Assembly (NCBI GenBank): GCA_037143235.1
Contig: JBAWZC010000003.1
Span: forward strand, 25,192 to 89,191
Direction: 5' to 3'
DNA length: 64,000 bases
Source: Candidatus Berkelbacteria bacterium
GTDB taxonomy: Bacteria; Patescibacteriota; UBA1384; XYA2-FULL-43-10; 1-14-0-10-43-13
The notes below the pieces were generated by a model, which had not been told where the DNA came from, searched no databases, and worked only from the letters and a program-made list of their open reading frames with translations. Positions 2,187-55,022 of the stretch are shown here, piece by piece; within the stretch, counting starts at the first letter, position 1; each line of letters opens with the position of its first letter. A program made the translations under genes and the position numbers.

Positions 2187-3182
2187 ATGCCTAAAATTTT
2201 TAAGTTCTTTGCGGGGATGATGGCGATTGCCTCGCTCATTTCTTTCCCGATGAACGCGGTGGCGGCAGACGGACAGGTCAGCCTCGTTACTGTTTCATCG
2301 AGGCAGGTTAGCGGCAATGGCACTGTTTTCTATGGCAAAACTGTTGCTCAGCTCATCGCCGACGAAAGCAACGAGCACAACATCAACCCTCGGATGATTT
2401 TGGCGATACTACAGAGAGAAAGCTCGTCAATCACTCAAACCTCACCAAGCAGCGAAACAGTACGAACTTGGCCAATGTTCTATATGTATGACGAGAGAAT
2501 GGCGACTTGCCTGAATCAAAAAGATCCTAACTACTGCTCCGATGCACTTTATGGCAATGCGACTTATCTAGAGAGAGCCAATGTCTTTGGCGGTCTTGGT
2601 CACCAGATAGCCTACTCGGTTTACAATTTTGACACGATGTACAACAAATACGCCTCGAGCGGCAACTACAGTAACGACACAACAGTAGACGGGACGATCA
2701 TCAACCCAGCCAACATTGCCACCAAAGTACTATACGCCTACACACCTCACATATCTGCTTACAATACTAACTCGAACTTCTGGACATATTACACCAAGTG
2801 GTGGGGAGCCCCAAACGGCGGTGTCAATAATATTAACAACATCTTCTCCAATGATGACTTCCGCAATTCAAGTCCGATGACCGGCACTCAGATAAATGAT
2901 TGGCTGAAAAGCGTGCCTGGCGCTGGACGCAGTTGGCTGGCAGATTATGTAATATCAGAATACATTGCGGTTCCATATCCCTCTGTCGCCGGCGGCGCCG
3001 TCAATACCCCACCACCAGTTCCTGGTGATTTCAATGGCGATCGTACGGTAGAAATTCTTGATTTATCGATGTTTGCAAGTTATTGGGGCCAAACTGATCC
3101 AGGCAATCCCCTTGTCGATATGAACAGAGACGGAGTCGTCGATATTGTCGACCTGTCGATGTTAGCAAGTTATTGGAAATAA
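2187..3182 (+). CDS. Secreted protein with a C-terminal type-I dockerin-like module; the N-terminal domain is possibly lysozyme/transglycosylase-like
   Basis: N-terminal signal peptide (MPKIFKFFAGMMAIASLISFPMNAVAADG). The C-terminus carries two 22-residue Ca-binding repeats, DFNGDRTVEILDLSMFASYW and DMNRDGVVDIVDLSMLASYW, matching the D-x-N-x-D-G...D dockerin pattern. An 'ILAILQRESSS' E-S motif in the N-terminal half gives only weak catalytic-domain evidence. Confidence 0.6.
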   Translation: MPKIFKFFAGMMAIASLISFPMNAVAADGQVSLVTVSSRQVSGNGTVFYGKTVAQLIADESNEHNINPRMILAILQRESSSITQTSPSSETVRTWPMFYMYDERMATCLNQKDPNYCSDALYGNATYLERANVFGGLGHQIAYSVYNFDTMYNKYASSGNYSNDTTVDGTIINPANIATKVLYAYTPHISAYNTNSNFWTYYTKWWGAPNGGVNNINNIFSNDDFRNSSPMTGTQINDWLKSVPGAGRSWLADYVISEYIAVPYPSVAGGAVNTPPPVPGDFNGDRTVEILDLSMFASYWGQTDPGNPLVDMNRDGVVDIVDLSMLASYWK

Positions 3183-3189
3183 ATAGGAT

Positions 3190-3386
3190 AAATTAACCTA
3201 AGGGTTCTTCTCCTTTTCAAGGAGAAGTTAGATGAGGTTTCTTCTTAAACATTAAACCTCACCCCTGCCTCTCCTTGAAAAGGAGAGGGGTAAACCAATA
3301 ACTAAATAATCAAATATTCAATAAATGAATAAATGTCTAATTGATTAAATGAATAAATTAATAATTATATAAATCGAAGGAAAATT
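3190..3386. repeat. Intergenic cassette of three stem-loops plus an AT-rich 'aaatgaataaat' tract. An inverted copy lies at 38395-38590.
   Basis: Hairpins ttctcctttt-caa-ggagaag, gaggtttc...gaaacctc and cctctccttgaaaaggagagg are seen directly. The reverse complement recurs at 38455-38590 with a ~24 bp insertion. The AT-rich tail recurs at 30880-30960 and 38395-38460. Confidence 0.5.
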
Positions 3387-4682
3387 ATGAATAAAATTAG
3401 ATCAATCGCAGCCGGGCTGCTGCTCTCTGCTATCACCATTTTCAGCCTGCCGACTTCGGCTTGGGCCGATGGAAGCATCAGTGCTTCTGGGGGCGGGACG
3501 AAAACTGTTGGTGACACCTTCAATATCACTGTAGCAGCCAAAGGTGCCGAATTTGATACCCTACAAGGCACAATTTCAGTCTCCGGACCAGTCGATATTG
3601 TTTCGTTTTCGGCTGGAAATGCGACCTGGATGCCTGGGTACTCACCCTCAAATGGCAAACAGTTTGTCGGCATGGTTAGCGCCACCTCCTCTTTCACTGT
3701 TGCGACGATCAGACTTCGCGCCAAAAGTATTGGCAGCGGCTCAGTCTCTGTTTCTGGCGCCAAGATGGTTAGAACGACTGGCGGGGTAGCCTCAGTCGTC
3801 GGCACTGGTACTGACGGAACGACTTTTACGATTCAACGAGCTCTTGTCACCCCGGGACAAATCACTGTCACTTCCTCCTCTCACCCAGATCAAAGCACCG
3901 CCTATGAAGCGACAACCATCGCCCTTGCGTGGGATAAGGGTAGTGGCGTGACTGATTTTTCCTATTTGCTGGACCAAGCCGCCGACACGACCCCTCCAAC
4001 AACCGCAACTTCCGCCGACACTTCGATCTCCTACCCAGACAAAGCCATCGGTGAATATTATTTCCATATCCGAGCAAAAAATGGCGACGGTTGGGGACCA
4101 ACAACAACTTTCAAAATTACGATCAAAGAGCCAGATGCCAAAATTGACGAAACACTTACCAAACCAACCATTTCTTCCATTGAAAAAACGGCTGATTTTT
4201 CGAACAATATTGCCGAGGGTAATATCAGCGGTATCAAGATCAAGGGCAAAACAATTGCCGGCTACACCGCTAATATTATTCTTGCTCCGTCGGTCTCGGT
4301 GCCCGAAGGAAAAAGTTTGTCTGCGATGGCTGATGCCAATGGCGATTTCGAACTTTTGATCGACTATCCAATCAATTCTGGTTTCTACAAATTGACTGTA
4401 CAAGGCCAGCTGAACAAGGTTTTGACACCGGTAAGTGATCCTACCATCTTCGAAATCTCCCAAGCTAAAGGCGGGAAAATCACACTTTTAACCTCAGCTG
4501 ACGAAAAAGAACCAATAATCCCAGTCAAAAAATGGTGGGAAAAAATCAACTATATGAACCTGTCGATCGGCTTGGCAGCGCTTTTCTTTATCGCTCTTGG
4601 TTTCAGCCTATACCTGCTGGTCAAGAATAGATCCATGAGTAAAGTCTGGAAAGGTGTGGCTGAGAAGATGAACCTCAAATAA
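3387..4682 (+). CDS. Cell-surface protein with beta-sandwich (cohesin/Ig-like) and FN3-like domains and a C-terminal TM anchor
   Basis: Signal peptide (MNKIRSIAAGLLLSAITIFSLPTSAWA). An N-terminal Gly/Ser/Thr-rich beta-strand region resembles cohesin or Ig folds. The segment 'YYFHIRAKNGDGWGPTTTFKITI' is FN3-like. The C-terminus has a hydrophobic anchor followed by KNR. It lies immediately downstream of the dockerin-bearing gene. Confidence 0.45.
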   Translation: MNKIRSIAAGLLLSAITIFSLPTSAWADGSISASGGGTKTVGDTFNITVAAKGAEFDTLQGTISVSGPVDIVSFSAGNATWMPGYSPSNGKQFVGMVSATSSFTVATIRLRAKSIGSGSVSVSGAKMVRTTGGVASVVGTGTDGTTFTIQRALVTPGQITVTSSSHPDQSTAYEATTIALAWDKGSGVTDFSYLLDQAADTTPPTTATSADTSISYPDKAIGEYYFHIRAKNGDGWGPTTTFKITIKEPDAKIDETLTKPTISSIEKTADFSNNIAEGNISGIKIKGKTIAGYTANIILAPSVSVPEGKSLSAMADANGDFELLIDYPINSGFYKLTVQGQLNKVLTPVSDPTIFEISQAKGGKITLLTSADEKEPIIPVKKWWEKINYMNLSIGLAALFFIALGFSLYLLVKNRSMSKVWKGVAEKMNLK

Positions 4683-4710: not shown

Positions 4711-5091
4711 ATGGATGAAAACAAAACAATAAAATCTTTCGCAGACTTAAATTCATGGAAAGAATCTCGCAAATTGGCAGTAAAAGTATATGAAGTTACC
4801 AAGAAATACCCAAAAGAAGAGATGTTTGGACTGACAAACCAATCTAGGAGATGCGCCGTTTCGATTTCATCAAATATAGCAGAGGGATTTAGCAGACAAT
4901 CATACAAAGAAAAAGTACAATTTTACTCAATATCTCTTGGGTCAACAACAGAGTTACAAAGCCAACTTTTGATCGCTAAGGATGTCGGATTTCTTGATAC
5001 TATTGACTACAATAGCTTGATTAATCAGTCAATAATTGTACATAAATTACTTAACGGGTTAGTAAAAAGCTCCAAAAACCATGATTCATAA
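4711..5091 (+). CDS. Four-helix-bundle protein (23S rRNA intervening-sequence protein family, TIGR02436-like)
   Basis: 126 aa carrying the family signature '...QSRRCAVSISSNIAEGFSRQS...'. A paralog lies at 30475-30852. Confidence 0.7.
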   Translation: MDENKTIKSFADLNSWKESRKLAVKVYEVTKKYPKEEMFGLTNQSRRCAVSISSNIAEGFSRQSYKEKVQFYSISLGSTTELQSQLLIAKDVGFLDTIDYNSLINQSIIVHKLLNGLVKSSKNHDS

Positions 5092-6475: not shown

Positions 6476-6832
6476 TCATTTGTGCTCTGATATTTTGAAC
6501 AATATTAATAAATATCTGACGAGAAAAAATACTGCCACTGTAGAGCCGAAGATTGAGATTATTGACAAAATAATGCCATAACTCATCGGTAAGTGCCTTG
6601 AGACAAGATGCTGATATGGAGTTGGAATAATTTTGAGAAAAAATAAACCCGCTGTTCCCAAAGCCGCCACGAAATAAAATCTGGTTTTAATGTCCAGCTC
6701 GATCAATAGTCCGCACGCAACGATAACAGCCAAAAATAAAAAAACACGAAGTCGACCAAAAGCAGGCATGGCTGCAACTGTGACTATATATATTGCAATT
6801 ACCGAGTAAATTATTTTTTGAATCTTTGTCAT
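6476..6832 (-). CDS. Small integral membrane protein (4 TM), function unknown
   Basis: 118 aa, very hydrophobic. Its start overlaps the stop of the upstream 464-aa membrane protein (ATGA), so the two are probably co-transcribed. Confidence 0.4.
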   Translation of the reverse strand: MTKIQKIIYSVIAIYIVTVAAMPAFGRLRVFLFLAVIVACGLLIELDIKTRFYFVAALGTAGLFFLKIIPTPYQHLVSRHLPMSYGIILSIISIFGSTVAVFFLVRYLLILFKISEHK

Positions 6833-8223
6833 TTTACCTTAAATATTTTAACACCATCGTGATCATAAATGAGAGAGTAATTGTCACTCACAATCGCTGG
6901 AATTTGGTCAACTTCTGCGTAGTATATTTCGTTGAAGTTTAATCCCGTTGGCAACACATCTGTCTTTTGGAAAACCGACAAATTTTCTATAGAGCCAACA
7001 TCAGTCAATGCCTTGATCCAAATCTGGCGTTTGTGTGTTGCAGTTACAACAACACTACTGTCTGAATTTCGTTGCAACCAGTCGATTGCTTCCCTGTCTC
7101 CTATAGTCATACTGTCATTGGCCGCAACATTATTCACTTGATATGAGGTAATAATATTGTTACCACGAAAATGTGGCCACAATGCCACAATACCAATTAA
7201 TATTGTCAGTCCGATCGAGTAAAATCTACCGAGTTTCATTGTCTCGACAAAATGCTTCACCCCAAGGGAGATAAATATGGCTAGGGCTATATCAAGATAC
7301 GGGAAAAATCGAAATACAAGGAAGCGAACCCCGAATATCTGGTTCATTGACATAAACAGCGCGACAAATAACAGCAAATACAATACTTTGATGTAACGAC
7401 TTGACCAATTTTTGGTCGAGATCACGACTCCGATCAAGGCAAAAACAAGAGAGAAGGTTCGCAATGGATCGTTGTTGATGAGTACTTCCCAGAGTGGCCG
7501 TTCGCCCCAACCGATTCTCTCAGGATTTATGAAATCACGAAATTTGACCAAAATTGCTGGATCGACCAGATAACACACTACAATCGCACCAATATAAATT
7601 CCGCCAATAATAAGAATATACTTGCGACCTTGCTTTTCAAATATCATAAGGACGAAATACAACATAAAAATCAGGGCAAAAATCGTAAAAGAAAAAGGAT
7701 GGCTAAAAGCTAAAAATGCGCTCGAAAGAACTGTAAGTAAAATATTACCGGAAGCGAGAAAATATAGCGTCCAAATCAAAACTATCCAACCGAAAGATTC
7801 AGCAAAAAGCCCCATCCGCAGACTATCGACGGACCAACAACCCAAAGCAAAAGCGGCCGCGCCGACAAAAGAATAAAGATTGCTCTTCGTCATCTTTTTG
7901 ATAAAGAAAAAAAGACTCACGGAGGCCAAAAACAGTTGAGTCGAAATCTGTAAAACAAAAAGAGTTGGTGCCGAAAGATGACTAATGCTATGGAAGAATT
8001 TAAAGATAGAAAGCGGCATTGGATACGAAAGTATCTTAAACATCTCTCTGTAGCTGTATATGTGAATATACTGGATATGAATCGCGGGGTCATCACCAGT
8101 TGGAAAACCATTGGTGATCAAAGCGTACTGAGAAGATAGAAATGCCAATGTCAAAAAGGCAATCACATAAAAAAGCCAACGCCAATGAATAATAAATTTA
8201 AGAACTTTCTCTGTATTCTTCAC
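6829..8223 (-). CDS. Polytopic membrane protein, candidate GT-C-fold glycosyltransferase (a partner for the adjacent GtrB-like GT2)
   Basis: 464 aa. The first extracytoplasmic loop after TM1 carries an acidic 'GDDP' motif. There are ~11 TM helices and a C-terminal soluble domain. It is divergently arranged with a GtrB-like GT2 + DUF2304 pair. The function is inferred from context only. Confidence 0.35.
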   Translation of the reverse strand: MKNTEKVLKFIIHWRWLFYVIAFLTLAFLSSQYALITNGFPTGDDPAIHIQYIHIYSYREMFKILSYPMPLSIFKFFHSISHLSAPTLFVLQISTQLFLASVSLFFFIKKMTKSNLYSFVGAAAFALGCWSVDSLRMGLFAESFGWIVLIWTLYFLASGNILLTVLSSAFLAFSHPFSFTIFALIFMLYFVLMIFEKQGRKYILIIGGIYIGAIVVCYLVDPAILVKFRDFINPERIGWGERPLWEVLINNDPLRTFSLVFALIGVVISTKNWSSRYIKVLYLLLFVALFMSMNQIFGVRFLVFRFFPYLDIALAIFISLGVKHFVETMKLGRFYSIGLTILIGIVALWPHFRGNNIITSYQVNNVAANDSMTIGDREAIDWLQRNSDSSVVVTATHKRQIWIKALTDVGSIENLSVFQKTDVLPTGLNFNEIYYAEVDQIPAIVSDNYSLIYDHDGVKIFKVK

Positions 8224-10620: not shown

Positions 10621-11775
10621 ATGAAAATACTCCAAGTTATCCCCTTCTTTACTCCTGCGCTAAGCTTTGGTGGTCCAGTAAAGGTTTGCCAGCAAATCAG
10701 TTCTGAATTATCCAAGAAGGGTGACTCTGTCACAGTATGGACAACGGATGCTGCTGATACAGACAATCCTATTACAAAATATGACGAAATTGTTAATGGC
10801 ATCTCTATCAAGCGTTTCAAAAACTTTTTCCCAAAGCTGACACACGGTTACAATATATTTACTCCGATTGGTTTTTCTTCGTATGCGACAAAAACAATAT
10901 CAAAATATGATGTCGTCCATTGCCACTCTTTTTTTACATATCAAAACATTATTATTAGCCGAGTTTGCCGCAAGCACAAAGTCCCGTACATCATTCACCT
11001 TCATGAAACTCCTATTCCAAATGACCTGCTTGGTAAAAAAATAATTAAATCTACTTACAACCGTTTTTTTGGTAAAAAAATATTATTAAATGCCGACAGC
11101 ATAATAGTGGTTTCTTCTCGAGAGAAAGACCTTCTATCCGACTATTTACCAGAACTTAACAAAAGAATTTTTGTTGTGCCAAATCCTATCGAAAAATATG
11201 AATTTAATCCTTCCTTAAAGAAAACTGCGAAAGACTCAAAAACAATACTCTGTTTGGGCAGACTTAGTTTTATAAAATCGATTGACAACTTAGTGCTATC
11301 GTTTGCCGAACTTCTCAAAAAAGACGATTTATACAAGCTAATCATCGCTGGACCGAATGAGAACAAAACTTTACCTAAATTGCAAAAGCTTGTAAATGAT
11401 CTTGCAATAGCAGACAAGGTAGAATTTACAGGGCTAATAACTGGCGAGGCAAAAGAAAAAGTATTTTACAGATCAGATATTTTTGCTCTTTTCTCCGATT
11501 ACGAATCTTTTTCCGTTGCCTCCCTCGAAGCGCTCCAGCACAATCTCCCCTGCTGTTTATCTAATAATATTGGCATAGCCCCACAAATTGAGCAATCAGG
11601 CGCTGGCGTTGTTGTCGCTGACACAAAAAACTTTTCCGAATGCGCAGAAAAGATGAAATTTGTCTATGAAAATAGGTACAATCTATCAAAGAACTGTTCG
11701 AAAATTCTACCGTTATTTGAGATATCTGTTATAATGAACCTAATTAGAACAATATATAAGAAAGCGATTCAATGA
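10621..11775 (+). CDS. Glycosyltransferase family 4
   Basis: Contains the motifs 'MKILQVIPFFTPALSFGGPV', 'ILCLGRLSFIKSIDNLV...KLIIAGPNE' and 'FSDYESFSVASLEALQHNLP' (the E-x7-E region). Confidence 0.75.
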   Translation: MKILQVIPFFTPALSFGGPVKVCQQISSELSKKGDSVTVWTTDAADTDNPITKYDEIVNGISIKRFKNFFPKLTHGYNIFTPIGFSSYATKTISKYDVVHCHSFFTYQNIIISRVCRKHKVPYIIHLHETPIPNDLLGKKIIKSTYNRFFGKKILLNADSIIVVSSREKDLLSDYLPELNKRIFVVPNPIEKYEFNPSLKKTAKDSKTILCLGRLSFIKSIDNLVLSFAELLKKDDLYKLIIAGPNENKTLPKLQKLVNDLAIADKVEFTGLITGEAKEKVFYRSDIFALFSDYESFSVASLEALQHNLPCCLSNNIGIAPQIEQSGAGVVVADTKNFSECAEKMKFVYENRYNLSKNCSKILPLFEISVIMNLIRTIYKKAIQ

Positions 11776-13766
11776 TTGACTGGATTAACATCAAGGCGCT
11801 TTTTGTGATTGTATCTATTCTGACAGTCAGTAGTTTTGCACTGTATTTTCCGATGGCCGCCATATTTGAAGAGAAGATTGCTGCCAAATTTGCGATTCCT
11901 GTCTCAATCTCCGTCCAGATTATCTTCGCATATGTCTTCTATTGTTTTGGCATCGTAAAAATCTATCCAGCTATCTATGCTTCGCTAATAGTGTTTATAA
12001 ATGTTTTAGCCATATGGAAACTTAAACATGGTTTTTTCAATATACGCAGGCCGTCCCTCCAGCAAATTCTTCACATACTAGCTCTTATCATACTTTTTTG
12101 CGTTATAATATACAGCAGGTTTCATGATTCTTTCACAAACATTGCCCCTGGAGAAATTGACACTTACAGTCATGTCCAATTTATAAAAGATCTTACTACA
12201 CAAGGATACTTAAATTTTCCACAATACGCCCCTGGTTTCCATCTGTTTCTCTATCCTCTAGTTTTCGTAACCAAACTGTCTGAGATATATAGATTTGCAG
12301 GCCCTACAATAGGTGTGCTGTGTATTTTATCTTCGTTTCTCCTGCTAAAGGATTCTTTCAAGCGAACAACAACAAGGTACGTATTTCTCGCACTTTGCCT
12401 TTTACCAATATTCAATCAGCTATTCTTGCAACAAATCGGCTTTTTTTCAACTTCACTTTCGTTCATTTTCATACCGTCGCTCATTTTTGCCATCTATACG
12501 AAAAAAGATATCTTACCAAAATCAGGAATATTAATTCTATACGGTCTGATAATTTCTGCACTATCTTTGACTCTTCCATATCTCTATATCCAGTACCTGC
12601 CTTCGCTTGCTCTTTTCTCTATCATAATTTTTGCAACTAAAAAAGGCTACTCAAATGATTATCTGCGCAAAATATTATGTATCTGTATACTATCTTTTAT
12701 TGGCTTTTTCTTGGCATTCGGACATGTGTATTTGCAGACGAAGATTCTTAAAAGAGCAGACAATTTCCCCGCCATGGAGTTTACCCGTTTTGAAAATGGC
12801 TCGTTAGTTGTCAGCAACAGTTACTCGCCCACAGACAATCCAAATCAGACAGTTACCCCAGCTGCCAGAAGCTACATTAGCACTATAGCGGACCATAGTT
12901 CCCAGGCTATTTTAAAAGCATCAAAGAAGATTGATCCTGTCACCAAGACTTTGAAAGAAACTGCTGCTTATACAAAGTATATTAGGCCAATGCTGAATAC
13001 TGCCAATGAGGCATTTTCCGTAAAAAATATTCGTCCATTTGCGGGAACTCTATCTATAGGCGCATATGTGTGGATATTCATATGCGCATTAGTGCTCCTC
13101 TATGCTTCGTTAATAAAGAACACTCTGCTTCTAACATTATCAGCCTTTACATTAATATTTGGCATAGCAACACAGTTTGGTGTTTTAGAAATTAGCTCAT
13201 ATCGAGGAAGAAGCGGCTGGTATTTATTGCTTTTCATGATACTTCTCGTAACTTTCCTATATGACCTTTATTTTCCTAAAAAGTTTGAAAAGAAATGGTT
13301 TATTTATACGGCTATTGCTCTAAGTTGCACCTTAGGGATAGCTAAACCACCAGTATTCTACCGAGCCTACTATACTGATAGTTATGTCAAACTAAAAAAT
13401 ATTGTGACCTCGCTGCCCGATAAGACGACATTGTCATTGTTGACAAATGATAGACAGCTAAGTCTAGTATTGGAAAGCATTCAGCTAACCCCACTGGATA
13501 ATGGGACAATCTTAAAACCATGCAGCAGCAATACCTGTGTAATAATTATCGATAAAAAGTTTTTTGATGCAGATCCTATTTTATCTCAGAAAAGTATCGC
13601 CGGGGATGAAAACTTCTCAGATTATTATGCCAAACAAGTGGCAGCTGAACTTGAGTACAAAACAAGAGTTGAGAGAATCAAAGGTACATATGAATTCTCT
13701 TTGTACAAACTATACTGGGACGATAACAACACCGAGATATATTGGATAAATAATAGCGCTAAATGA
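11772..13766 (+). CDS. Large polytopic membrane protein (>12 TM) with a C-terminal soluble domain. Possible GT-C glycosyltransferase or polymerase.
   Basis: 664 aa. ATGA overlap with the upstream GT4. No recognisable catalytic motif, so the role is inferred from glycan-locus context. Confidence 0.4.
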   Translation: MIDWINIKALFVIVSILTVSSFALYFPMAAIFEEKIAAKFAIPVSISVQIIFAYVFYCFGIVKIYPAIYASLIVFINVLAIWKLKHGFFNIRRPSLQQILHILALIILFCVIIYSRFHDSFTNIAPGEIDTYSHVQFIKDLTTQGYLNFPQYAPGFHLFLYPLVFVTKLSEIYRFAGPTIGVLCILSSFLLLKDSFKRTTTRYVFLALCLLPIFNQLFLQQIGFFSTSLSFIFIPSLIFAIYTKKDILPKSGILILYGLIISALSLTLPYLYIQYLPSLALFSIIIFATKKGYSNDYLRKILCICILSFIGFFLAFGHVYLQTKILKRADNFPAMEFTRFENGSLVVSNSYSPTDNPNQTVTPAARSYISTIADHSSQAILKASKKIDPVTKTLKETAAYTKYIRPMLNTANEAFSVKNIRPFAGTLSIGAYVWIFICALVLLYASLIKNTLLLTLSAFTLIFGIATQFGVLEISSYRGRSGWYLLLFMILLVTFLYDLYFPKKFEKKWFIYTAIALSCTLGIAKPPVFYRAYYTDSYVKLKNIVTSLPDKTTLSLLTNDRQLSLVLESIQLTPLDNGTILKPCSSNTCVIIIDKKFFDADPILSQKSIAGDENFSDYYAKQVAAELEYKTRVERIKGTYEFSLYKLYWDDNNTEIYWINNSAK

Positions 13767-38394: not shown

Positions 38395-38590
38395 TGCCAG
38401 AAGTAATACCTATCCAGAGACAATTTAATCAATTAATCATTTATTCATTTAGTCATTGATTATCTCCTCTCCTTTTCAAGGAGAGGCAGGGTGAGGTTTA
38501 ATGTTTTAAAATGAAACCTCATCTAACCCATTCGACTTCGCTCAGGGCAGGACTTTCTCCTTGAAAAGGAGAAGAACCCTTAGAGCAATT
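38395..38590. repeat. Three-hairpin cassette, inverted copy of 3190-3386
   Basis: 'ctctccttttcaaggagagg', 'gaggtttaatgttttaaaatgaaacctc' and 'tttctccttgaaaaggagaag' are the reverse complement of the 3195-3300 hairpins. AT-rich 'atttattcattt' lies at the FemA-proximal end. Confidence 0.5.
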
Positions 38591-44706: not shown

Positions 44707-44750
44707 ATATTTATCGCCACTGGGCACTAATTTTGTTGTATGGAGGGAAG

Positions 44751-46847
44751 ATGAATATACGAAATTTTATAGCCAAGATCCTCGTGATCTCTCTTTTTGT
44801 GACCATCTTGCCATATCAGCAGGCGATGGCAAAAAATGACATGCCAGCCACACCTACTCCAACACTTGGTGAGGGACAATATGATGAGGCAGGAAGCATA
44901 TGGGAGTGGCAACACGAAGATACTGATGGCGGAAGATGGGTTGTGATACACACTATTGCCCAAAAAGTTAACGGACAAATTGTTTACCACAAAATCAAAT
45001 ATGGACAAGATGCTGCAAACCTACAGACAACTTTTTCAATGGTAGACTATAAAAATGAAACTCGAAGTCTCGGCGGTCAATATTGGTTCAAGATGGAAAC
45101 ATATGACGACGACGGTGTTAGTGGATACAATATTTATATCTATATACATTCCAGAGGAACACAGAACCCACCAATACCATCGCCCTCGCAAACGCAAATA
45201 ACGCCGCCCGGTGAGTACAACCGAGACTTTGCTGATCCATCTTACCTCGGAACAATCGTGACATCAGCCAAAAAGGCTTACGGCCTTTACAAATGGGTCT
45301 ATACAGTACCAAAAGGCAAAATGCAAGACGCTGGGTATTGTATTGACAAGGGGCAGACAGCAATCGTGAGAGATGTCACTGGCGTGAGGCAGATAGAGAA
45401 TCTGGGCATGATAATCTTTGGCGCAACCACGGGGTACCGATTGGAAAATACATATACGAATGCCGCCGACGAAACAGCTATGTGTATGCAGCCAGTCATG
45501 AAATTTCAGTATGGCGACAAGACGAAAGCTGTGGAAAATTATCTAACTGCCACTAATGATTATCTAAACTCCAGAGATATCATAAACAAACCGAATGTAA
45601 CTGAAGAATTTATTACACCGGAGGAAATATCTGAAGCAGGCTGTAAATCTCCTCTTGGAAATGAGGCTGATGCAAAAAATACTTTCATGAAAAATTACGA
45701 TGAATATATGACCGTGCTCTGGGACAATGCCGTTGACAATAATGGCAACAGCATCGTTGTACCCGGAAATGTAAAAGACAAATACAAGGAAAACACTATC
45801 AATGCAATGAATGGCGATATGCCGGATATTACGAAGATTAATTCATTTAAACTACCCGGAGTTGATTGGGGTGGTATGTACCAACAATATTATGGAGGTT
45901 ACGGAATAAAAAACTATCCCGGTTCAGGGTATGGACCTGCCCCCGATGCGCAGTATCCCAACATGTTTTATGATAAAAACATGCTAGATCGTATGGATGC
46001 CCCTCTTAAACAGATTGAAAGTAGATGGAGCAAAAAACCCACACCAGAAAACGCACTTACGCTCCCTGACAAAAAGGTGATTGATATGGAAAAAACCCAA
46101 ATCAAGGCCGCCGAGGCGGTAACGAAGAAAAATGGTGGCTCCGTCCCAAATGGCGGGTTAACACTACCACAGGCCTCATGGATTCTAACTGGAGTAGCTG
46201 CAACCGGTCTTATCCTTGCCAAAACAGGAGTTTTTGCGGCGGCCTGGGGCGGAGTTAAGACCGCCGCTGTTAACTATGGAATTGCGATGTATTTAGATTT
46301 TGGTGTCGCCATAGAAAGTGCTGGAGCAACAATAGGAGTAGCTCTTGGTGCAACAGTAATTTTAATTGCTCTCGCGGTCGCTTTAACTGTTCTGGCAATA
46401 ACTTATGCCAACGTAGACAAATATTACAACCAGAATCTGGTAAAGGCACAGACAGCATTGCTTTATTCGACTTTCTTGGCAAGTAATGCGGCTGATTTCC
46501 ACGCTTGCATGCTTCAAAATTCAGTCAAGGCAAACAAAATGGACGCAGCAAAAGCTATTAAGCTTGGCTTAACCGACGAGAATGTTAAAAACGAGATGAT
46601 GAATATCGCTTATGGCAAGAATAATTATGCCAAATCGGTAGTGACAAATATAAAAAATGCTGGAAACTGCCCAGATATTAATCTTATGAATATGGGGCAG
46701 ACATTGCAAAGTGCAATTTGCAATGTCTTTTATATGCTCAACTCCCTGATTAATGTATTGGCCAACGGGGTTCGAGACTTTATGGTCAATAACATCTTGT
46801 CATTTAATACCCTAGGACCAGTACCAAAAATTATAAATACTGCATGA
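44751..46847 (+). CDS. Secreted protein with C-terminal membrane-spanning segments. First gene of the T4SS-like operon.
   Basis: Signal peptide (MNIRNFIAKILVISLFVTILPYQQAMA). There is a ~450 aa soluble region, then 2-3 hydrophobic helices ('WILTGVAATGLILAKTGVFAAAW', 'IGVALGATVILIALAVALTVLAITY'). The start is chosen at the ATG after the GGAGGG RBS rather than the track's upstream ATG. Confidence 0.45.
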   Translation: MNIRNFIAKILVISLFVTILPYQQAMAKNDMPATPTPTLGEGQYDEAGSIWEWQHEDTDGGRWVVIHTIAQKVNGQIVYHKIKYGQDAANLQTTFSMVDYKNETRSLGGQYWFKMETYDDDGVSGYNIYIYIHSRGTQNPPIPSPSQTQITPPGEYNRDFADPSYLGTIVTSAKKAYGLYKWVYTVPKGKMQDAGYCIDKGQTAIVRDVTGVRQIENLGMIIFGATTGYRLENTYTNAADETAMCMQPVMKFQYGDKTKAVENYLTATNDYLNSRDIINKPNVTEEFITPEEISEAGCKSPLGNEADAKNTFMKNYDEYMTVLWDNAVDNNGNSIVVPGNVKDKYKENTINAMNGDMPDITKINSFKLPGVDWGGMYQQYYGGYGIKNYPGSGYGPAPDAQYPNMFYDKNMLDRMDAPLKQIESRWSKKPTPENALTLPDKKVIDMEKTQIKAAEAVTKKNGGSVPNGGLTLPQASWILTGVAATGLILAKTGVFAAAWGGVKTAAVNYGIAMYLDFGVAIESAGATIGVALGATVILIALAVALTVLAITYANVDKYYNQNLVKAQTALLYSTFLASNAADFHACMLQNSVKANKMDAAKAIKLGLTDENVKNEMMNIAYGKNNYAKSVVTNIKNAGNCPDINLMNMGQTLQSAICNVFYMLNSLINVLANGVRDFMVNNILSFNTLGPVPKIINTA

Positions 46848-49135
46848 ACAGCGAATTTCTAAAAAAATATTCACTCCTTTTTTTCTCCTTACTCGCCTTC
46901 TCGGTGCTAGTAAGTTTGATATTTTATAATTACGCTTCTGCTGGAGCAATTGCTCTGACGCTTGAATCAAATGCCGGAGTAATGAAGAGCTGGAAACTCA
47001 TCATAGGTATTGCCAACAGTTTCGTCATCTTGATTTTAATCGTAGTTGCTTTTGCTGAAATACTACACATCCAAATAGACACATATGCCGTTAAAAAGAT
47101 TTTACCATCGATCATTATGGCTGTTGTTGCAGCTAACTTCAGTTTTCTCTTGTGTCGAATCGCCGTCGATTTAAGCACGGTAGCTATTGTAAGGTTTTCT
47201 GTGATAAATGATAGTTTGGGAAATAACCTCACCGATTCTACTTGGATACCTTGGGACATGGACAACGTTGGGCAGAGTCTATTTAACGCTATCATCACAC
47301 CAGTATTTACTTTGGTATTGCTGATCGCATATGCAGTTCTAGCCTTTTTGTTCTTCATCAGGAGCTATGTAATATACTTTTTGGTTATCGTCTCTCCAAT
47401 AGCCATCATGGCCATGGTGTTACCAGTCACCAAAAAATTCTTCGATCAGTGGCTCGGACAATTTCTTCGCTGGGCATTCCTACCAGTTCCATCGATGGCG
47501 CTCTTGGGACTGATGGGAATATTCCTAACACAAATACCTAACGGTCTTTTAAGAATAGCCTACTCTTCTGTCTGTCTTTATGGTGCGATCATATTGCCTT
47601 TTCAGCTCGGCGGGCCGATCATGCAAAAATGGAGTACATTGCCTGGCCATGCCTTTAAGCAACTTGGTGGAGTTGGGGCGAGGATATCAAATTATGGGCA
47701 AAGAAGAAGAAAAATGTACGGAGACAATGACAGACTGGGCAACGCAATGAACAGTATTGGTGGTTTTATCAACGCCCCATACATGGTCAAGACACTGCAA
47801 GACAAACACAAGGCATATGTGACTGATCTCGGTAAGGCCGAAAGCAAGACTTGGGTAAAAGGCGCTCTTGGCGGAATGAGTGGGCAACTTGAGTCCATGG
47901 GTCTTCGTCATGCTGATGATCTGGCCAATAGCACTGCCATGACGGATGCCCAACAGATTATGGCTGTAGAAAATACTATTCGTGGTGCAATCAATGCTAC
48001 CCCTGCGCTTCGAACCAGGCAACAACAGAGGATGGTCGAGGGCATCGACACAAAACTTGGAGGTGCTGGAAATTATGATAACCCACTCGTTAGTGATGCT
48101 CGAAAGAACGATGCCCTTCGTAGGTACTTAGCTTCTGAATCCCAAGGCAGTCTAGCTACAAAGCATCTTGGGTTAGCAGGACTTACCAATGCCAGTGACA
48201 TAGTGTTGGCACAGGGATGGGCTAAAAATGCAATTGTAGATATACGTGGGAACAGGACCAGGGCCGACTTCGAAAGAGTATACAGAGGTGGGCCACCGCC
48301 GACGCCACCGGGGGGGCCACCGCCTCCCGGACACTTGCCAACGGGAGCAGTTGGCCAGACAACAGCCAACAGTGCTGCTGAGGGAGAAGGAGGTACTGGC
48401 AATATGCGCCCAGTGCCGGTTGTGATTATGGAAAATCGTGACCAGACGATAAGAGATGGAATGTCGCATATTGCCAAATACGACGCCATAACCAAAGAAA
48501 TATTGGCAGGAGTACAGAACGGTACGGTTCCCCCGACAAACCTGACGGGATTAATGGACGGAACGATGTCAGACGACAAGAAAGCCAGAGCTGTCGAGTC
48601 AATGGTACCAAGTCTTCAAGGCCAAGATCCAGTAAAGATTGCTGAAGCGTTGGCACTTCTAAATAGATCTTCGTCTGCAAGAAGTGGCAACGGAGATTAT
48701 AATACTGTGATGAACGAGATCAAAAATGCATTAAACAATCATGCTAATAATTCTGCTTTGGGCAGCACTGTACTCGACCACATGGGCAACAATAGCAACA
48801 ACACCATCGGTAGTTATATAGGCAACGAGCAAGCGATGAAAGAACTGGCCGGATCTGTCGCTGATATGCATATGGCAATCAACAACCTTGGAGAAAGACC
48901 AGCGATCGATCACACTGAACTTGCAAAAGTATTGAAAGAATCAATGATTGGACTGGTTGGCAAAAATGGTGGTGGCAATGGTGCCAATACCTCTATGTCG
49001 TCACTTCTGGGTGGTACTGACGAACAAGCGAAAAGACGATTTGCAGAGACAATGGGTAAGGCTGTGGCAACAAGCATGGCCAAGCAAGGAGCGAATATGA
49101 GAACACCGGCGCCGGAACCGCAGAACGGGGTTTAA
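46844..49135 (+). CDS. VirB6/TrbL-like polytopic membrane protein with a large C-terminal extracytoplasmic domain (ConG/TcpH-type architecture)
   Basis: ATGA overlap with the upstream gene. ~7 TM helices in the first 270 aa. A 'GGPPPTPPGGPPPPG' proline linker is followed by a ~480 aa soluble domain. This domain organisation matches the VirB6 homologues of Gram-positive conjugation systems. The call rests on architecture rather than strong sequence similarity. Confidence 0.4.
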   Translation: MNSEFLKKYSLLFFSLLAFSVLVSLIFYNYASAGAIALTLESNAGVMKSWKLIIGIANSFVILILIVVAFAEILHIQIDTYAVKKILPSIIMAVVAANFSFLLCRIAVDLSTVAIVRFSVINDSLGNNLTDSTWIPWDMDNVGQSLFNAIITPVFTLVLLIAYAVLAFLFFIRSYVIYFLVIVSPIAIMAMVLPVTKKFFDQWLGQFLRWAFLPVPSMALLGLMGIFLTQIPNGLLRIAYSSVCLYGAIILPFQLGGPIMQKWSTLPGHAFKQLGGVGARISNYGQRRRKMYGDNDRLGNAMNSIGGFINAPYMVKTLQDKHKAYVTDLGKAESKTWVKGALGGMSGQLESMGLRHADDLANSTAMTDAQQIMAVENTIRGAINATPALRTRQQQRMVEGIDTKLGGAGNYDNPLVSDARKNDALRRYLASESQGSLATKHLGLAGLTNASDIVLAQGWAKNAIVDIRGNRTRADFERVYRGGPPPTPPGGPPPPGHLPTGAVGQTTANSAAEGEGGTGNMRPVPVVIMENRDQTIRDGMSHIAKYDAITKEILAGVQNGTVPPTNLTGLMDGTMSDDKKARAVESMVPSLQGQDPVKIAEALALLNRSSSARSGNGDYNTVMNEIKNALNNHANNSALGSTVLDHMGNNSNNTIGSYIGNEQAMKELAGSVADMHMAINNLGERPAIDHTELAKVLKESMIGLVGKNGGGNGANTSMSSLLGGTDEQAKRRFAETMGKAVATSMAKQGANMRTPAPEPQNGV

Positions 49136-49139
49136 TCAA

Positions 49140-49320
49140 GCAAGCTGGTAAGCTATTAAATATTTAAGCCGGTAAACAAAAACTTCTCGACTCGTCAGAC
49201 TCGCCCCAAAGGGGACATTTCAAGTCTCGAAGAATAAATTGTTATGGTTCGAGCCCTGCGTGTCAGTAGACAGGTTGTCGAGAACAGCACGTTGAAGCGT
49301 GGCTACAAGAATGACAAACA
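49140..49320. repeat. Composite intergenic repeat (modules D + C + E)
   Basis: 'agctggtaagctattaaatatttaagcc', then 'gttatggttcgagccctg...gtcgagaacagcacgttgaagcgtggctacaagaatgacaaaca'. Confidence 0.55.
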
Positions 49321-49336
49321 TTATTGAAGAGAAATT

Positions 49337-51139
49337 ATGAGCGAAAACAAACCACAACCTGATGAAACACCACTCGGCCCAGTCCCAGTCAAATCTCTTT
49401 TAGATAGATTAAGAGAAGAGACAGAAGGAGGAAGTCAGGAAACAGAAGACAGGAGTCAGGAGACAGTCGAGACTATTCCACCAGTCCCCCCTGCTGTTGT
49501 CGAGGAAAAGAATCAATCCCGAGAACGCAAAAGAGCATTTTGCGACAAACAATCGTTTGTCGACTTTGCGAAATATTGTATCGATGGCGGTACCGAAGAC
49601 TTGATCATTCTGGCCGAAAAAGATTTGGCTGAAAAAAGAAAAAATCAGACAGAGGCAGATAACACAGAAGAAAATGAGGCAATGAAAGAGGGCGTGGAGG
49701 CGATCAACAGATTTATTTTTTCCCCAGAGTGGAAGACCGTCTGGCAAAAATTTGACGCCCTAAAGGCGAACCCCGAATATGCAAATATTGACCAAAGAAA
49801 AAAAGATATTCAGCAAGCGATTCTGATGCCAGTGATCAACGGGCACTTGACCGCACAGGACGCCGCAAATTTGGTCTCTGGTGTTGATATCTTGCCTGAA
49901 AATAATACTGGCGACTCGACCCAAAGCCATGGTTACGATGGCATTCTTTTCTATTCCCCTAGCAGCCGCAAGATATTGATCGCCGAACGAGCGCTCAAAG
50001 ACAAATATACCGAAAATCGAAACGGCACAGAAGTTGAGATAAAGTTGAACTTTGGTCATATGATCTCGCACGAGATGGGTCATGGTCTGACGGCTGAGGC
50101 GGGAGCCACACCACGAACAAGCGCCGAACTGGCGAAGCAAATAACTGATAAAGAGCCGAATTTTACTTCCAAGATGCTTTCCGAAGCTCGAAAGATGATC
50201 GACAATGCGGCGATATACAAAGACGCACAGCCGATGCATGTCAAAACTGTATTGGAAGGACTTTCAAACATCGGCGAGCAATATGACAAGATGACTGATC
50301 CTGAGAAACAAAAAGTTGGCACACTGGAGAATTATACGAACATACGCAAAATTATGGCGGCAGACGAGATTATCACCGACTACACCGCCGTCTTTTTGCA
50401 AACCGATGGCAGTTTTGCCGACTTCGCTGAGAAATGTATCTTGGTGGCCGACAAAGATGGTCTGTCGAGGTATTTGGCTGGGCCGATCGCAGGAGAAAAT
50501 ATTGACGCAACAGCTTTTGCCCTTGGCAAGTTGCGACAGATCAATGGTGAGCTAACCGCAGCTGAGAAGAAAGAACAAGCGACAGACGATGAAAACTTTG
50601 CTCGCGAAAACCCAGAAAATGCTGGATATCTGCTTCGCGAAACCAGAGAAGATGTTTTGAAAAAATATCCAGAGATCAGCCGATTGCTTGAATCCTATCA
50701 AGCTTTTTATGGAGATATAGTGGACATGAAGGGCAAAACTAGGGGCAAGATCACGATGGGCCAAGGGACCGAAGACGACGATATGATCTCCGAAGGCTAC
50801 GGCGGCGGTTTTGATGGTGGCAGAAGTATGGGCGGTAGTGGCAATGATGGCATCGCCATGGCGAACGATCTCCTCGGTATCGCACATCACCTTCTGTCTG
50901 GCGTTGGCGTGGTAACTGGTAGCGAGATGCAAATCAGGGGCGGACAGACCGCGGGTGCAGGAGCGCCAATTATTCCAAGCGAACAAAGATCAATTCCGAG
51001 TGTCGAAGGAACTATGACGGCAGAGCAAATTGAGGCAGCCAAAAAGGAGAAAGAAGAAAAAGAACGATTGGCGAAAGAAAAAGAAGAGACAGAAAAAGCC
51101 GCAGCTACGAGTCCGGAAAGTAACAAGCCGGCAGGATAG
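49337..51139 (+). CDS. Acidic soluble protein with an HExxH zincin-like motif and a Lys/Glu-rich C-terminal tail
   Basis: 'NFGHMISHEMGHGL' (HExxH) sits mid-protein. No signal peptide or TM helix. The C-terminus has 'EKEEKERLAKEKEETEK'. No family assignment is possible by eye. Confidence 0.35.
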   Translation: MSENKPQPDETPLGPVPVKSLLDRLREETEGGSQETEDRSQETVETIPPVPPAVVEEKNQSRERKRAFCDKQSFVDFAKYCIDGGTEDLIILAEKDLAEKRKNQTEADNTEENEAMKEGVEAINRFIFSPEWKTVWQKFDALKANPEYANIDQRKKDIQQAILMPVINGHLTAQDAANLVSGVDILPENNTGDSTQSHGYDGILFYSPSSRKILIAERALKDKYTENRNGTEVEIKLNFGHMISHEMGHGLTAEAGATPRTSAELAKQITDKEPNFTSKMLSEARKMIDNAAIYKDAQPMHVKTVLEGLSNIGEQYDKMTDPEKQKVGTLENYTNIRKIMAADEIITDYTAVFLQTDGSFADFAEKCILVADKDGLSRYLAGPIAGENIDATAFALGKLRQINGELTAAEKKEQATDDENFARENPENAGYLLRETREDVLKKYPEISRLLESYQAFYGDIVDMKGKTRGKITMGQGTEDDDMISEGYGGGFDGGRSMGGSGNDGIAMANDLLGIAHHLLSGVGVVTGSEMQIRGGQTAGAGAPIIPSEQRSIPSVEGTMTAEQIEAAKKEKEEKERLAKEKEETEKAAATSPESNKPAG

Positions 51140-51149
51140 AAAGATGAAC

Positions 51150-51470
51150 AGTTTTTAAGTGTTTAAGCCAGACAGTGAAAACAGGTCACTTTGCTAAGGC
51201 TGTTCTCCACGAGGTCGAACCATAACTAGTACCACGGCATTCTTATTGTTATTCTTCGAGCGAGCCTTGCGAGTCGAGAAGTAATGATAGATTGCCGCGC
51301 CTGCCTGCCGGTAGGTAGGTCGAAGACTTCTCGCAATGACAAACAGTTCTGTCCTTCCTGCGCAGGCAGGAATCTAGATATAATAGCAACTTCAGAATAT
51401 GCTCTCCTAGGCGCTCACGCGACGACGGGATTCCTGCCTACGCAGGAATGACACAGGGATAGGTGGAAAA
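51150..51470. repeat. Composite intergenic repeat cluster (modules D, C inverted, B inverted, A)
   Basis: 51195-51260 is the reverse complement of module C. 51283-51345 is the reverse complement of 36785-36840. 51350-51460 holds 'cctgcgcaggcaggaatc ... gggattcctgcctacgcaggaatgaca' inverted repeats. Confidence 0.6.
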
Positions 51471-51689
51471 GTATAACAATGTTTAAGTGTTTAAGCCGAA
51501 TAATTTACTAGTTGATAGTTTTATAATTTTTGCTGTTGCAATTAAAATTGTGTTACAATAACAGGTAGTTAATGTGCACAGTTTTATAGTATAGAATGCG
51601 CCAAAAAGTTTCGTCCCACTTCGCCTAGAAGCTTCGCGGGACCAAAACAATTACTTTAGATTTCGTTAGTGTAGTTTTGGGAGGGGTTC

Positions 51690-53162: not shown

Positions 53163-55022
53163 ATGGCAGACACAAATAACAACCAAAATCAGCCAGTTCC
53201 AACTCCAGCACCAGTCCCATCACCACGAGAGATGGCACAGGCAAATATTGCCCAGCGTGAAGCTGGTCGACCAGTGGTTGCAATTCCGACTGCACAAACA
53301 GACCAGTACAAAAAAGGTGTGACATCAGTCCCTGACATTATCGCCCCCGCCTCTTTTGTAGTCGAACAAAACTATATTCAGCTTGGCAATAAATTTGTCA
53401 AAACACTTTTTGTTTTCACTTATCCGCGATATTTGGAAACGAACTGGCTCTCCCCGATCATCAACTATGATCTTTCGATGGACATCGGGATGTATATTCA
53501 TCCGCTGGAGACCAAAGATGTCATGACCGACCTGAAAAACCAGCTCGGCAAGCTCGAGTCTACTTCGAGGATTGAACAGGAAAAAGGCACGCCGAGAGAT
53601 CCTGAGATTGAGACTGCTTTGGGTGATATTGAAGCGCTCCGAGATGTCTTGCAGCGCGGCGAGGTTCGCCTATTTCAATTTGGTCTGTACTTTACCATCT
53701 ACGCCAACTCGATCGAGGAATTGAAAACGATTACTGATCAGCTAGAGTCTACTCTCGGGGGCATCCTTGTTTACACCAAAGAAGCACTTTTCCAGATGGA
53801 ACAGGGTTTTACCGCGACTTTACCTCTCTTTTCAGACAAACTTGGCATCTTGCGCAACCTTGATACTGGTTCACTCTCTTCGACATTCCCCTTCGTCTCC
53901 TCTGATCTGACGCAGGAAGATGGCGTGCTGTACGGTATCAACAAGCACAACAATTCGTTGATCATTTTCGACCGCTTTAGCCTAGAAAATGCGAACTCTA
54001 TCGTCTTTGCAAAGTCTGGCTCGGGTAAAAGTTATTTTGTGAAACTTGAGGCTCTGCGCTACCTGATGATGGGTATCGATGTCATTGTGATCGACCCAGA
54101 AAATGAGTACAAACCGCTCTGTGAAGCTTTCAACGGCAGCTATCTCGAGATTTCGCTCAACTCTGACAAACGAATTAACCCTTTTGACCTGCCGATCAAT
54201 ACGGACGAGTCTGGTGAAGATGTCTTGCGTTCAAATATTGCCTCACTTCACGGCCTGATCAATGTGATGGCTGGCGGGTTGACTCCAGAGGAAGATGCTT
54301 TGGTCGACAAGGCTCTTTACGAGACCTACGCACTCAAGGATATTACGACAGACCCAGAAAGTCAGCGAAACGAAGTGCCACTGATGCAAGATTTTTACAA
54401 TATATTATCTGGTATGCAAGGTTCAGATTCACTTCGCGCTAGACTATCAAAATTTGTCGAGGGAACTTTTGCCAATCTGTACAATCAACGCACCAATTTT
54501 GATCTCAAGCCTGGTTTTGTTGTCTTTTCGGTTCGTGATCTCGATGAACAACTAAGGCCAATCGCCATCTATACTATTCTCGACTACATCTGGACCAAGA
54601 TCAGGATGAATCTCCGCAAAAGACTGATGATTGTTGATGAGGCTTGGTGGATGATGCAATACGATGACTCAGCGAAGTTTTTGCAGGGTTTGGCCAAAAG
54701 AGCACGAAAATATTATCTTGGTCTCACAATCATCTCACAGGATATTGAGGACTTTCTGTCGAGTCGTTACGGCAAGGCCGTGGTAGCCAACTCGTCGATG
54801 CAAATATTGATGAAACAGTCGACCGCTTCGATCAAGGCCGTGACTGATGTTTTTAATCTAACCGAAGGCGAACAATACATCCTACTCGAGTCAGAAGTTG
54901 GCGAAGGACTCTTTTTTGCTGGGCAAAACCATGTCGCCTTCAAGGCGATCGCCTCCTTTGTCGAAGACCAAATCATTAACACTGATCCGCGTCGTCTAAG
55001 CCAAAACAATGATGAACTTTAA
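53163..55022 (+). CDS. VirB4/TrbE/ConE-family T4SS ATPase
   Basis: The N-terminal region '...QLGNKFVKTLFVFTYPRYLETNWLSPIINYDLSMDIGMYIHP' is a VirB4 signature. Walker A is 'FAKSGSGKS'. Walker B is 'RLMIVDEAWWMM'. Confidence 0.8.
   Translation: MADTNNNQNQPVPTPAPVPSPREMAQANIAQREAGRPVVAIPTAQTDQYKKGVTSVPDIIAPASFVVEQNYIQLGNKFVKTLFVFTYPRYLETNWLSPIINYDLSMDIGMYIHPLETKDVMTDLKNQLGKLESTSRIEQEKGTPRDPEIETALGDIEALRDVLQRGEVRLFQFGLYFTIYANSIEELKTITDQLESTLGGILVYTKEALFQMEQGFTATLPLFSDKLGILRNLDTGSLSSTFPFVSSDLTQEDGVLYGINKHNNSLIIFDRFSLENANSIVFAKSGSGKSYFVKLEALRYLMMGIDVIVIDPENEYKPLCEAFNGSYLEISLNSDKRINPFDLPINTDESGEDVLRSNIASLHGLINVMAGGLTPEEDALVDKALYETYALKDITTDPESQRNEVPLMQDFYNILSGMQGSDSLRARLSKFVEGTFANLYNQRTNFDLKPGFVVFSVRDLDEQLRPIAIYTILDYIWTKIRMNLRKRLMIVDEAWWMMQYDDSAKFLQGLAKRARKYYLGLTIISQDIEDFLSSRYGKAVVANSSMQILMKQSTASIKAVTDVFNLTEGEQYILLESEVGEGLFFAGQNHVAFKAIASFVEDQIINTDPRRLSQNNDEL

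Follow-up and report, generated by a model that had tools for sequence, protein, structure and literature searches.

A predicted two-gene cohesin-dockerin tether beside envelope-glycan genes in Candidatus Berkelbacteria

Cohesin-dockerin docking is known chiefly from cellulosomes and from a few other nutrient-degrading complexes. Here we describe two neighbouring genes in a 64,000-nucleotide stretch of a Candidatus Berkelbacteria genome (contig JBAWZC010000003.1; the whole stretch is called the window below) that would represent the simplest plug-and-socket form of such docking: one membrane-anchored socket, one plug on an enzyme-like protein, and the genes side by side. Gene A (2187..3182) encodes a secreted dockerin-bearing protein of 331 amino acids (aa), and gene B (3387..4682) a type I membrane protein of 431 aa; these genes, their spacer and all their features given below lie on the + strand. 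We consider it rather likely that A and B constitute a two-gene, single-socket tether on the cell envelope, with a cargo that is probably glycan-cleaving and has the cell's own envelope as its target. Most likely, this is a non-cellulosomal tether, used on the envelope rather than on plant fibre.

In the list of open reading frames (ORFs) of the window, both genes occupy exactly the coordinates at which a preliminary description of this DNA had placed them. Their products are 100% identical to the deposited proteins P0121 (A, named 'dockerin type I domain-containing protein') and P0001 (B, named 'hypothetical protein'), and these exact copies come from a 99.6-kb contig in a metagenome-assembled genome of Candidatus Berkelbacteria, which belongs to the candidate phyla radiation (CPR/Patescibacteria). 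Both genes have a GAAGGA ribosome-binding site, located 7 nt ahead of A, and positions 2163-2168 upstream of A hold a TATAAT box. The two genes are not chance ORFs, because both represent conserved families, with more than 264 homologues for B and 48 close ones for A. Within the window, the dockerin of A is the only dockerin, and the N-terminal domain of B is the only domain of its type.

The C-terminus of A is a real type I dockerin with both Ca-binding loops intact (3027..3179). It consists of two segments of about 22 residues, DFNGDRTVEILDLSMFASYWGQ (aa 281-302, 3027-3092) and DMNRDGVVDIVDLSMLASYWK (aa 311-331, 3117-3179), each with an EF-hand-like Ca loop followed by a helix; the helices are at 290-297 and 320-328 in the AlphaFold2 (AF2) model. 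The repeats are identical to one another at 13 of 21 positions, and the Ca-ligand positions D1, N3, D5, and D12 are kept in both loops (DFNGDRTVEILD and DMNRDGVVDIVD) and are invariant or almost so throughout the A family. Pfam Dockerin_1 (PF00404) matches aa 279-329 with 35.5 bits (cut-off 22.9, E 1.1e-8), and the same model matches 44 of the 45 family members. A plain sequence search with A retrieves the solved dockerins 2y3n_B and 2jnk_A/2ozn, the latter from Clostridium perfringens NagH, and the profile of the A family matches at least 20 dockerins in the PDB, the best with E 4e-8. At the other end of the protein, MPKIFKFFAGMMAIASLISFPMNAVA followed by ADG is a signal peptide (aa 1-26, 2187..2264), the probable cleavage site being placed from an AXA motif; the AF2 model has an N-terminal helix at 3-19 and low-confidence residues after it. 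The Pro-rich linker NTPPPVPG (3003..3026), with a predicted local distance difference test score (pLDDT) <50 at aa 273-275, lies between the dockerin and the enzyme-like domain.

Protein B has the layout signal peptide, cohesin, FN3, beta-sandwich, and transmembrane helix. Its AF2 model, built on 44 sequences, has a mean pLDDT of 91.1 and contains three beta domains (approximately aa 29-150, 161-246, and 261-368) and a helix at 389-413. The signal peptide (aa 1-27, 3387..3467; AF2 helix 2-19) ends in LPTSAWA and is probably cleaved before DG. The membrane-distal end, aa 28-152 (3468..3842), is the candidate cohesin module. Next in line is a spacer domain of FN3 type (aa ~153-248, 3843..4130), assigned from weak Y_Y_Y and FN3con matches and from the alignment with the PDB structure 2w1n; among 44 B homologues, Pfam fn3 was found in 15 and Y_Y_Y in 21. 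The third beta-sandwich, also a spacer (aa ~252-370, 4140..4496), is Big_13/SpaA/CarboxypepD_reg-like according to the Pfam matches of homologues, and its strands at 261-368 are modelled with pLDDT 94-97. The C-terminal membrane anchor (4560..4679) comprises the transmembrane helix LSIGLAALFFIALGFSLYLLV (aa 392-412, 4560-4622) and the Lys/Arg-rich cytoplasmic tail KNRSMSKVWKGVAEKMNLK (4623-4679). By the positive-inside rule, B would be a type I membrane protein that carries the cohesin at its membrane-distal tip.

Two independent lines, one from structure and one from sequence, support the assignment of aa 28-152 of B to a divergent cohesin overlooked by current domain models. The modelled N-domain has pLDDT 94-97 across aa 30-150 and forms a cohesin-type beta-sandwich (a fold of about 130-150 residues). 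In a Foldseek search of the PDB, the B model is matched best by 2w1n (E 5.3e-9), a C. perfringens GH84C structure made up of a cohesin and an FN3 module, and the alignment spans both domains in the same order as in B. The best single-domain match is cohesin 5 of Ruminococcus flavefaciens ScaB (5n5p_A/C), with a TM-score of 0.60-0.61 and a root-mean-square deviation of 4.0 A over 140-142 columns. The sequence line starts from the profile of the B N-domain (alignment A3), which gave 161 matches among 1.84 billion representative proteins. Among the 101 remote matches, nine contain Pfam Cohesin and 14 contain Dockerin_1; in P0233 (31.8 bits), P0256 (35.3), and P0266 (27.3), Pfam Cohesin scores above the gathering threshold over the same residues as the profile match. 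Direct comparison of the B N-domain family with the Cohesin-positive CPR group by hhalign gave a probability of 99.2% (E 1e-19, 119 columns), and a PDB sequence search with this CPR group had the R. flavefaciens cohesins 5m2o and 5aoz as its top matches (E 0.01-0.02). We conclude that B contains a divergent cohesin, since the structural match and the profile link to Pfam-positive cohesins agree.

These results bear out most of what the preliminary description had read from the sequence: a double Ca-binding dockerin at the end of A, and a B protein with a signal peptide, beta-sandwich domains, and a C-terminal transmembrane anchor. Its guess that B also carries a cohesin has gained support, and the N-domain does not model as the non-cohesin Ig fold that it had named as the alternative, the best match being the cohesin+FN3 module 2w1n.

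Many CPR proteins (P0198-P0315) begin with a related cohesin-like domain. Besides the Dockerin_1 domains mentioned above, CarboxypepD_reg is present in 19 of the 101 remote matches. Such architectures hint at adaptor or scaffoldin-like proteins and at a wider cohesin-dockerin network in the CPR.

The pairing of the two genes was assessed in 52 loci from GTDB species-representative genomes and five loci from metagenome contigs, scanned with per-domain hidden Markov models. A B-type gene is present in 55 of these loci (five from metagenome contigs and 50 from GTDB), and without exception the gene immediately upstream, in the same orientation, bears a dockerin; in 53 of the 55 it has an A-type N-domain. 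This synteny is what one would expect of the minimal display pair proposed in the preliminary description. The gap between A and B in relatives is usually about 0-100 bp. The distant A homologue of locus L002, with 24% identity, keeps both the dockerin and the position, and in L028 two A-type genes stand in tandem. In two loci, the gene upstream of a B paralogue encodes another, large dockerin cargo. The cargo in L016 (405-3251, 949 aa) combines Peptidase_C39_2, five He_PIG domains, Big_9, and Dockerin_1; in that of L044 (91-3405, 1105 aa), the dockerin and an Alpha-L-AF_C-like region are both weak. In each of these genomes there is a further B paralogue, and its neighbour is of the A type (L032 and L050). 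A natural explanation is that each socket gene moves with its own plug gene, and that the plug is kept when the cargo changes. The B socket would then be generic, as suggested by the C39-like peptidase with Ig repeats that bears the dockerin in some relatives.

The cargo of A is a conserved, mostly helical N-terminal domain of about 240 aa (aa ~30-272, 2274..3002), modelled with pLDDT 86-98. Three motifs mark it: LQRE78SS (2409-2426), GGLGHQIAY (2589-2615), and YAYTPH (2733-2750). The residues E78, S80, Y99, C108, C117, Q140, Y183, and Y185-T-P are invariant in both A subfamilies, S79 is nearly so, and C108 and C117 form a conserved Cys pair. The family numbers at least 765 proteins, which come almost exclusively from CPR genomes and have no Pfam annotation except for C-terminal dockerins or other beta domains. 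Domain and family scans and a profile search against the PDB gave no match for the A N-domain in Pfam, NCBIfam, PHROG, or PDB sequences. E78 is located at the C-terminal end of the AF2 helix 68-79, within the motif NINPRMILAILQRESS. The catalytic helix-Glu-Ser found in family 1 lytic transglycosylases (the SLT family), for example GVDESLILAIMQTESS of MltC, is similar; as in these enzymes, a Glu at the end of a helix is followed by Ser. The sub-threshold Foldseek lists for the PDB and BFVD also consist mostly of SLT and GEWL proteins, including MltF, Slt, LtgA, SltB3, the phi6 lysin, more than 25 phage SLT/GEWL proteins, and endolysins. Our working hypothesis, for and against which the chances are about evenly balanced, is by analogy that the domain is a lysozyme-like glycan-cleaving enzyme with Glu78 as the acid.

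The two A subfamilies differ in the position of one element. A 35-aa segment with the pattern M(S/T)xxxI(N/Q)xFLxxxGSxLAxYxIxEY(I/V)xVPYP, in A MTGTQINDWLK...EYIAVPYP (aa 231-265, 2877-2981), is C-terminal to the domain in A and N-terminal in the sister subfamily (L002-L005, P0163-P0167). This switch is an apparent domain or segment permutation inside one family.

Around the pair lies a conserved envelope-glycan locus of the Wzx/Wzy type, a setting that the preliminary description had not noticed. A divergent Wzy_C gene lies upstream, and genes for a Polysacc_synt/MatE flippase, GT2, DUF2304, and GT4 proteins lie downstream. All five Pfam-annotated loci have the pair flanked by Wzy_C, the Polysacc_synt flippase, GT2, DUF2304, and GT4. 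Single-sequence searches of the short GTDB flanks gave lower bounds: a downstream flippase in 18 or more of 44 loci, and an upstream Wzy-like gene in 13 or more of 46. At this search sensitivity (28-41% of loci, again as lower bounds), the suggestion that the wider context is conserved as strongly as the A-B pair found no support. The glycan-locus context is real, yet looser than the link between A and B.

Taken together, these data are consistent with the following scheme. Both proteins would leave the cell via the Sec pathway, as their signal peptides suggest, and B would be retained in the cytoplasmic membrane by its C-terminal helix. The FN3 and Big_13/SpaA-like spacers, as modelled, would form a rod that holds a single divergent cohesin off the membrane. 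The dockerin of A would bind Ca2+ in its two EF-hand-like loops and plug into this cohesin, holding the enzyme-like domain at the cell surface and preventing its diffusion. Given the near-identical repeats, the dockerin could be usable in either orientation, by analogy with the dual binding mode of type I dockerins. The weakest step concerns the cargo, which would be a glycan cleaver of the lysozyme/lytic-transglycosylase type with Glu78 as the catalytic acid. It would cut or remodel a polymer of the cell's own envelope, either peptidoglycan, making passage for the glycan or its machinery, or the glycan itself; the own envelope is the proposed target since a conserved Wzy/Wzx/glycosyltransferase locus surrounds the pair.

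Several observations weigh against this scheme, part of them concerning the docking and part the cargo. As for the docking, Pfam Cohesin (PF00963) is absent at E<=1 from B and 43 homologues, the NCBIfam scan is likewise blank, and sequence and profile searches with B, both full length and N-domain, returned only antibody or signal-peptide noise from the PDB; of the two Pfam domains that the preliminary description expected, Dockerin_1 was found in A and Cohesin was not found in B. Strict co-transcription of A and B may not take place here, because they are parted by a 204-bp spacer with a very stable hairpin. The true partner of A could also be a cohesin elsewhere in the genome, beyond the 64-kb window. 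All this gives some ground for an explanation without physical pairing, in which the dockerin of A binds another cohesin or a glycan, or only stabilises A through Ca, and B is an independent adhesin or spacer whose N-domain is merely a beta-sandwich, the genes adjoining since both serve the envelope. The many CPR proteins with related cohesin-like N-domains make other partners plausible as well. We nevertheless regard such an explanation as quite improbable in view of the adjacency in 55 of 55 loci, the retention of the dockerin despite cargo replacement, the dockerin neighbour that each B paralogue has of its own, and the hhalign link to Pfam-positive cohesins. The divergence of the two domains is also correlated. 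In a domain-level mirror-tree test over 51 loci, dockerin and cohesin-domain distances gave r 0.54 (partial r 0.39 with other domains removed), compared with r 0.28 between the cohesin domain and B's own FN3 and r 0.33 with B's own third domain; the test is confounded by shared phylogeny, with every permutation p-value at 0.001, controls included, and the correlation is suggestive only as a sign of pairing. From the synteny, the cargo swapping, and the correlated divergence, we infer that A and B probably bind each other.

As for the cargo, the A model has no Foldseek match at E<=1e-3 in the PDB or BFVD, with TM-scores of about 0.2-0.3, and hhalign comparison of the A family with four E. coli SLT domains (MltC, Slt70, EmtA, and MltD) gave a probability of only 2.3% (E 0.02, 26 columns), although these 26 columns place E78-S79 on the catalytic Glu-Ser of all four. 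The claim that A belongs to the SLT family was rejected as not demonstrated, on this score and on the blank Pfam, NCBIfam, and PHROG scans, and SLT enzymes are kept as a working analogy. The wall-modifying enzyme tether of the preliminary description consequently stands in part: the Glu-Ser motif and the sub-threshold fold matches to lytic transglycosylases speak for it, and a significant match to an enzyme family is lacking. With A not demonstrably an SLT enzyme, the same tether might act on the surface glycan of the Wzx/Wzy pathway instead of peptidoglycan, with B holding A beside the export site; A would then be the hydrolase or lyase that processes the polymer of this pathway, like BcsZ, AlgL, PslG, and PelA in other exopolysaccharide operons. 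Such a role would fit the genes that flank the pair: Wzy_C, a flippase of the Wzx type, and several glycosyltransferases in each Pfam-annotated locus, and also the flippase and Wzy-like genes counted in the GTDB flanks. On balance we find it unlikely, though worth keeping in view: the sole structural neighbours of A, weak as they are, cleave peptidoglycan, the motif of A aligns with the catalytic Glu-Ser of murein transglycosylases, and conservation is weaker for the wider context than for the adjacency of A and B. The tethered enzyme could also serve attack, as in other epibiotic or parasitic members of the CPR, by cutting a host bacterium's wall where the two cells touch, with B as the display arm and the cargo (a muramidase-like protein or a C39-like peptidase) exchangeable. 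The varied dockerin cargos beside B paralogues, including the C39-like peptidase with many Ig repeats, and the tandem A-type genes in L028 would suit offensive display. So would the finding that envelope proteins with dockerin, FN3, and VCBS domains are essential in an epibiotic Saccharibacterium, for which targeting of host glycans was proposed (Wang et al., 2023; PMC10633639). Here, however, the context is biosynthetic and is not a secretion or attack cluster, which makes this use of the tether improbable. The essential dockerin protein of Southlakia, SEML1_0315, was considered as an A homologue with a cohesin neighbour and rejected; it is a 927-aa Ig-domain protein beside a tRNA gene, unrelated to A and without an adjacent cohesin gene. 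The preferred reading remains a tether directed at the cell's own envelope.

The spacer between A and B contains a long palindromic element (3203..3292), a second copy of which is present at 38468-38572. The element is approximately 90-115 nt long, intergenic, and found twice in the window, the second copy lying between the FemAB and Mur-ligase genes. It is made up of two hairpin units, TCTCCTT-NNN-AAGGAGA, around GAGGTTT...AAACCTC, and the predicted RNA fold of 3183-3300 has an energy of -45.6 kcal/mol (z -4.47). Rfam gave nothing above threshold for the spacer or the whole window, and the element is absent between A and B in the relatives compared. It looks like a repeat of the repetitive extragenic palindrome or miniature inverted-repeat transposable element type (REP/MITE). 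It does not belong to the protein system itself, but between A and B it may work as a terminator or stabiliser, and it may influence their co-expression.

Several other genes of the window deserve mention. Between B and the flippase gene, a gene on the + strand (4711-5091) encodes a four-helix-bundle '23S rRNA intervening sequence protein' (PF05635, 124 bits); this gene is also present in L003 and absent from L002, L004, and L005. Two proteins of the glycan locus, of 464 aa (6829-8223, -) and 664 aa (11772-13766, +), have no Pfam match; the former is highly hydrophobic by sequence and may be a GT-C-type glycosyltransferase. Peptidoglycan genes, namely FemAB and a Mur ligase, are also found in the window. 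No recognisable glycoside hydrolase, and none for nutrient polysaccharides, was found among the window ORFs scanned, in line with the preliminary description, which saw no polysaccharide degraders here. A type IV secretion-like cluster occupies approximately 44733-56289 and includes TrbL/VirB6-like (46844..49135) and TraG/VirB4-like P-loop (53163..55022) genes. These are followed by a gene for a 426-aa protein (55009-56289, +) with a C-terminal Peptidase_M15_4 domain and the N-terminal motif NHNVNPAILTAMWVAEAS. The motif resembles that of the A catalytic helix, and hhalign of the A family against this protein gave a probability of only 9%; the protein may be another enzyme that cuts the wall, of the same remote type as A.

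The pair is found in CPR bacteria that have small genomes and are uncultured. As an extension that we put forward tentatively and with some doubt, it could exemplify a strictly gene-paired display module with one cohesin and one dockerin, present throughout Berkelbacteria and related CPR lineages. The cohesin of this module would be too divergent for current family models, its standard cargo would be unrecognised lysozyme-like cleavers of envelope glycan or peptidoglycan (at least 765 proteins), and other dockerin proteins could take the place of that cargo. If this is true, cohesin-dockerin docking would be a general device of ultra-small bacteria for envelope engineering or host attack, independent of polysaccharide nutrition, and the CPR proteins with related cohesin-like N-domains, some with dockerins, would form an unexplored network of surface interactions. 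Current domain models miss the B cohesin class, so that cohesin surveys of the CPR would undercount it, B-type proteins being annotated only as 'hypothetical' or 'FN3 domain'. The strict pairing would provide at least 50 natural cognate pairs for specificity studies or as orthogonal protein-docking parts. The cargo domain, a large unannotated family, may represent a new type of envelope glycan-cleaving enzyme.

Among known systems, single-cohesin anchoring proteins of cellulosome producers, such as OlpA and SdbA of Clostridium thermocellum and ScaE of R. flavefaciens, are similar in that one cohesin on a cell-bound protein holds one dockerin partner at the surface; R. flavefaciens also provides the best single-domain structural match of B (5n5p_A). 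These proteins are anchored by S-layer homology (SLH) domains or by sortase, their cargo consists of cellulosomal carbohydrate-active enzymes (CAZymes) or scaffoldins, and their genes are not known to be strictly paired with those of the cargo. In contrast, B is anchored by a C-terminal transmembrane helix and its predicted cargo belongs to an unannotated lysozyme-like family. The pair lacks the features of a cellulosome or scaffoldin: there is one cohesin per B, the cargo has no recognised CAZyme domain, and the anchor is a transmembrane helix.

The cargo itself may be compared with family 1 lytic transglycosylases (PF01464, GH23), whose succession of helix, (I/V)(N/D)P, helix, and Glu-Ser motif is also seen in A. 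By direct reading, the G-x-G-x-Q and Y-x-Y-T-P motifs of A sit where GLMQ and AYN do in these enzymes. The domain of A differs from them in its larger size (~240 aa), in its conserved Cys pair, and in a 35-aa segment whose place changes between the subfamilies, and it gives no significant match by sequence or fold.

The closest structural parallel is provided by C. perfringens. GH84C/NagJ ('X82', 2w1n) is the structure that B matches best; there, as in B, FN3 comes straight after the cohesin, and the NagH dockerin (2jnk_A/2ozn) is matched by the dockerin of A. The C. perfringens complexes have one cohesin per protein and dock enzymes pairwise, with no degradation of cellulose (PMC12997984); the pair described here resembles them in having a single cohesin per protein and in not involving cellulose degradation. 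The similarity ends there, as the C. perfringens cohesins lie inside large secreted glycoside hydrolases (toxins) and link enzymes to one another, whereas B has no catalytic domain, is anchored by a transmembrane helix, and is always encoded beside a dockerin gene; sequence identity over the match is only ~14-16%. Docking beyond cellulose is also exemplified by the Ruminococcus bromii amylosome and the Limousia mucinolysome, which use cohesin-dockerin docking on non-cellulose substrates (PMC12997984). There, however, multi-cohesin scaffoldins gather many CAZymes for nutrient polymers, while the A-B system has one cohesin and one, sometimes two, cargo genes, and lies among the envelope-biosynthesis genes of a CPR bacterium with a small genome. 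In the papers searched, none linked Berkelbacteria with cohesins and none described this gene pair. Four things set the pair apart from known systems: its cohesin class is invisible to current models, a transmembrane helix anchors it, its genes are obligately paired, and its cargo family is unannotated.

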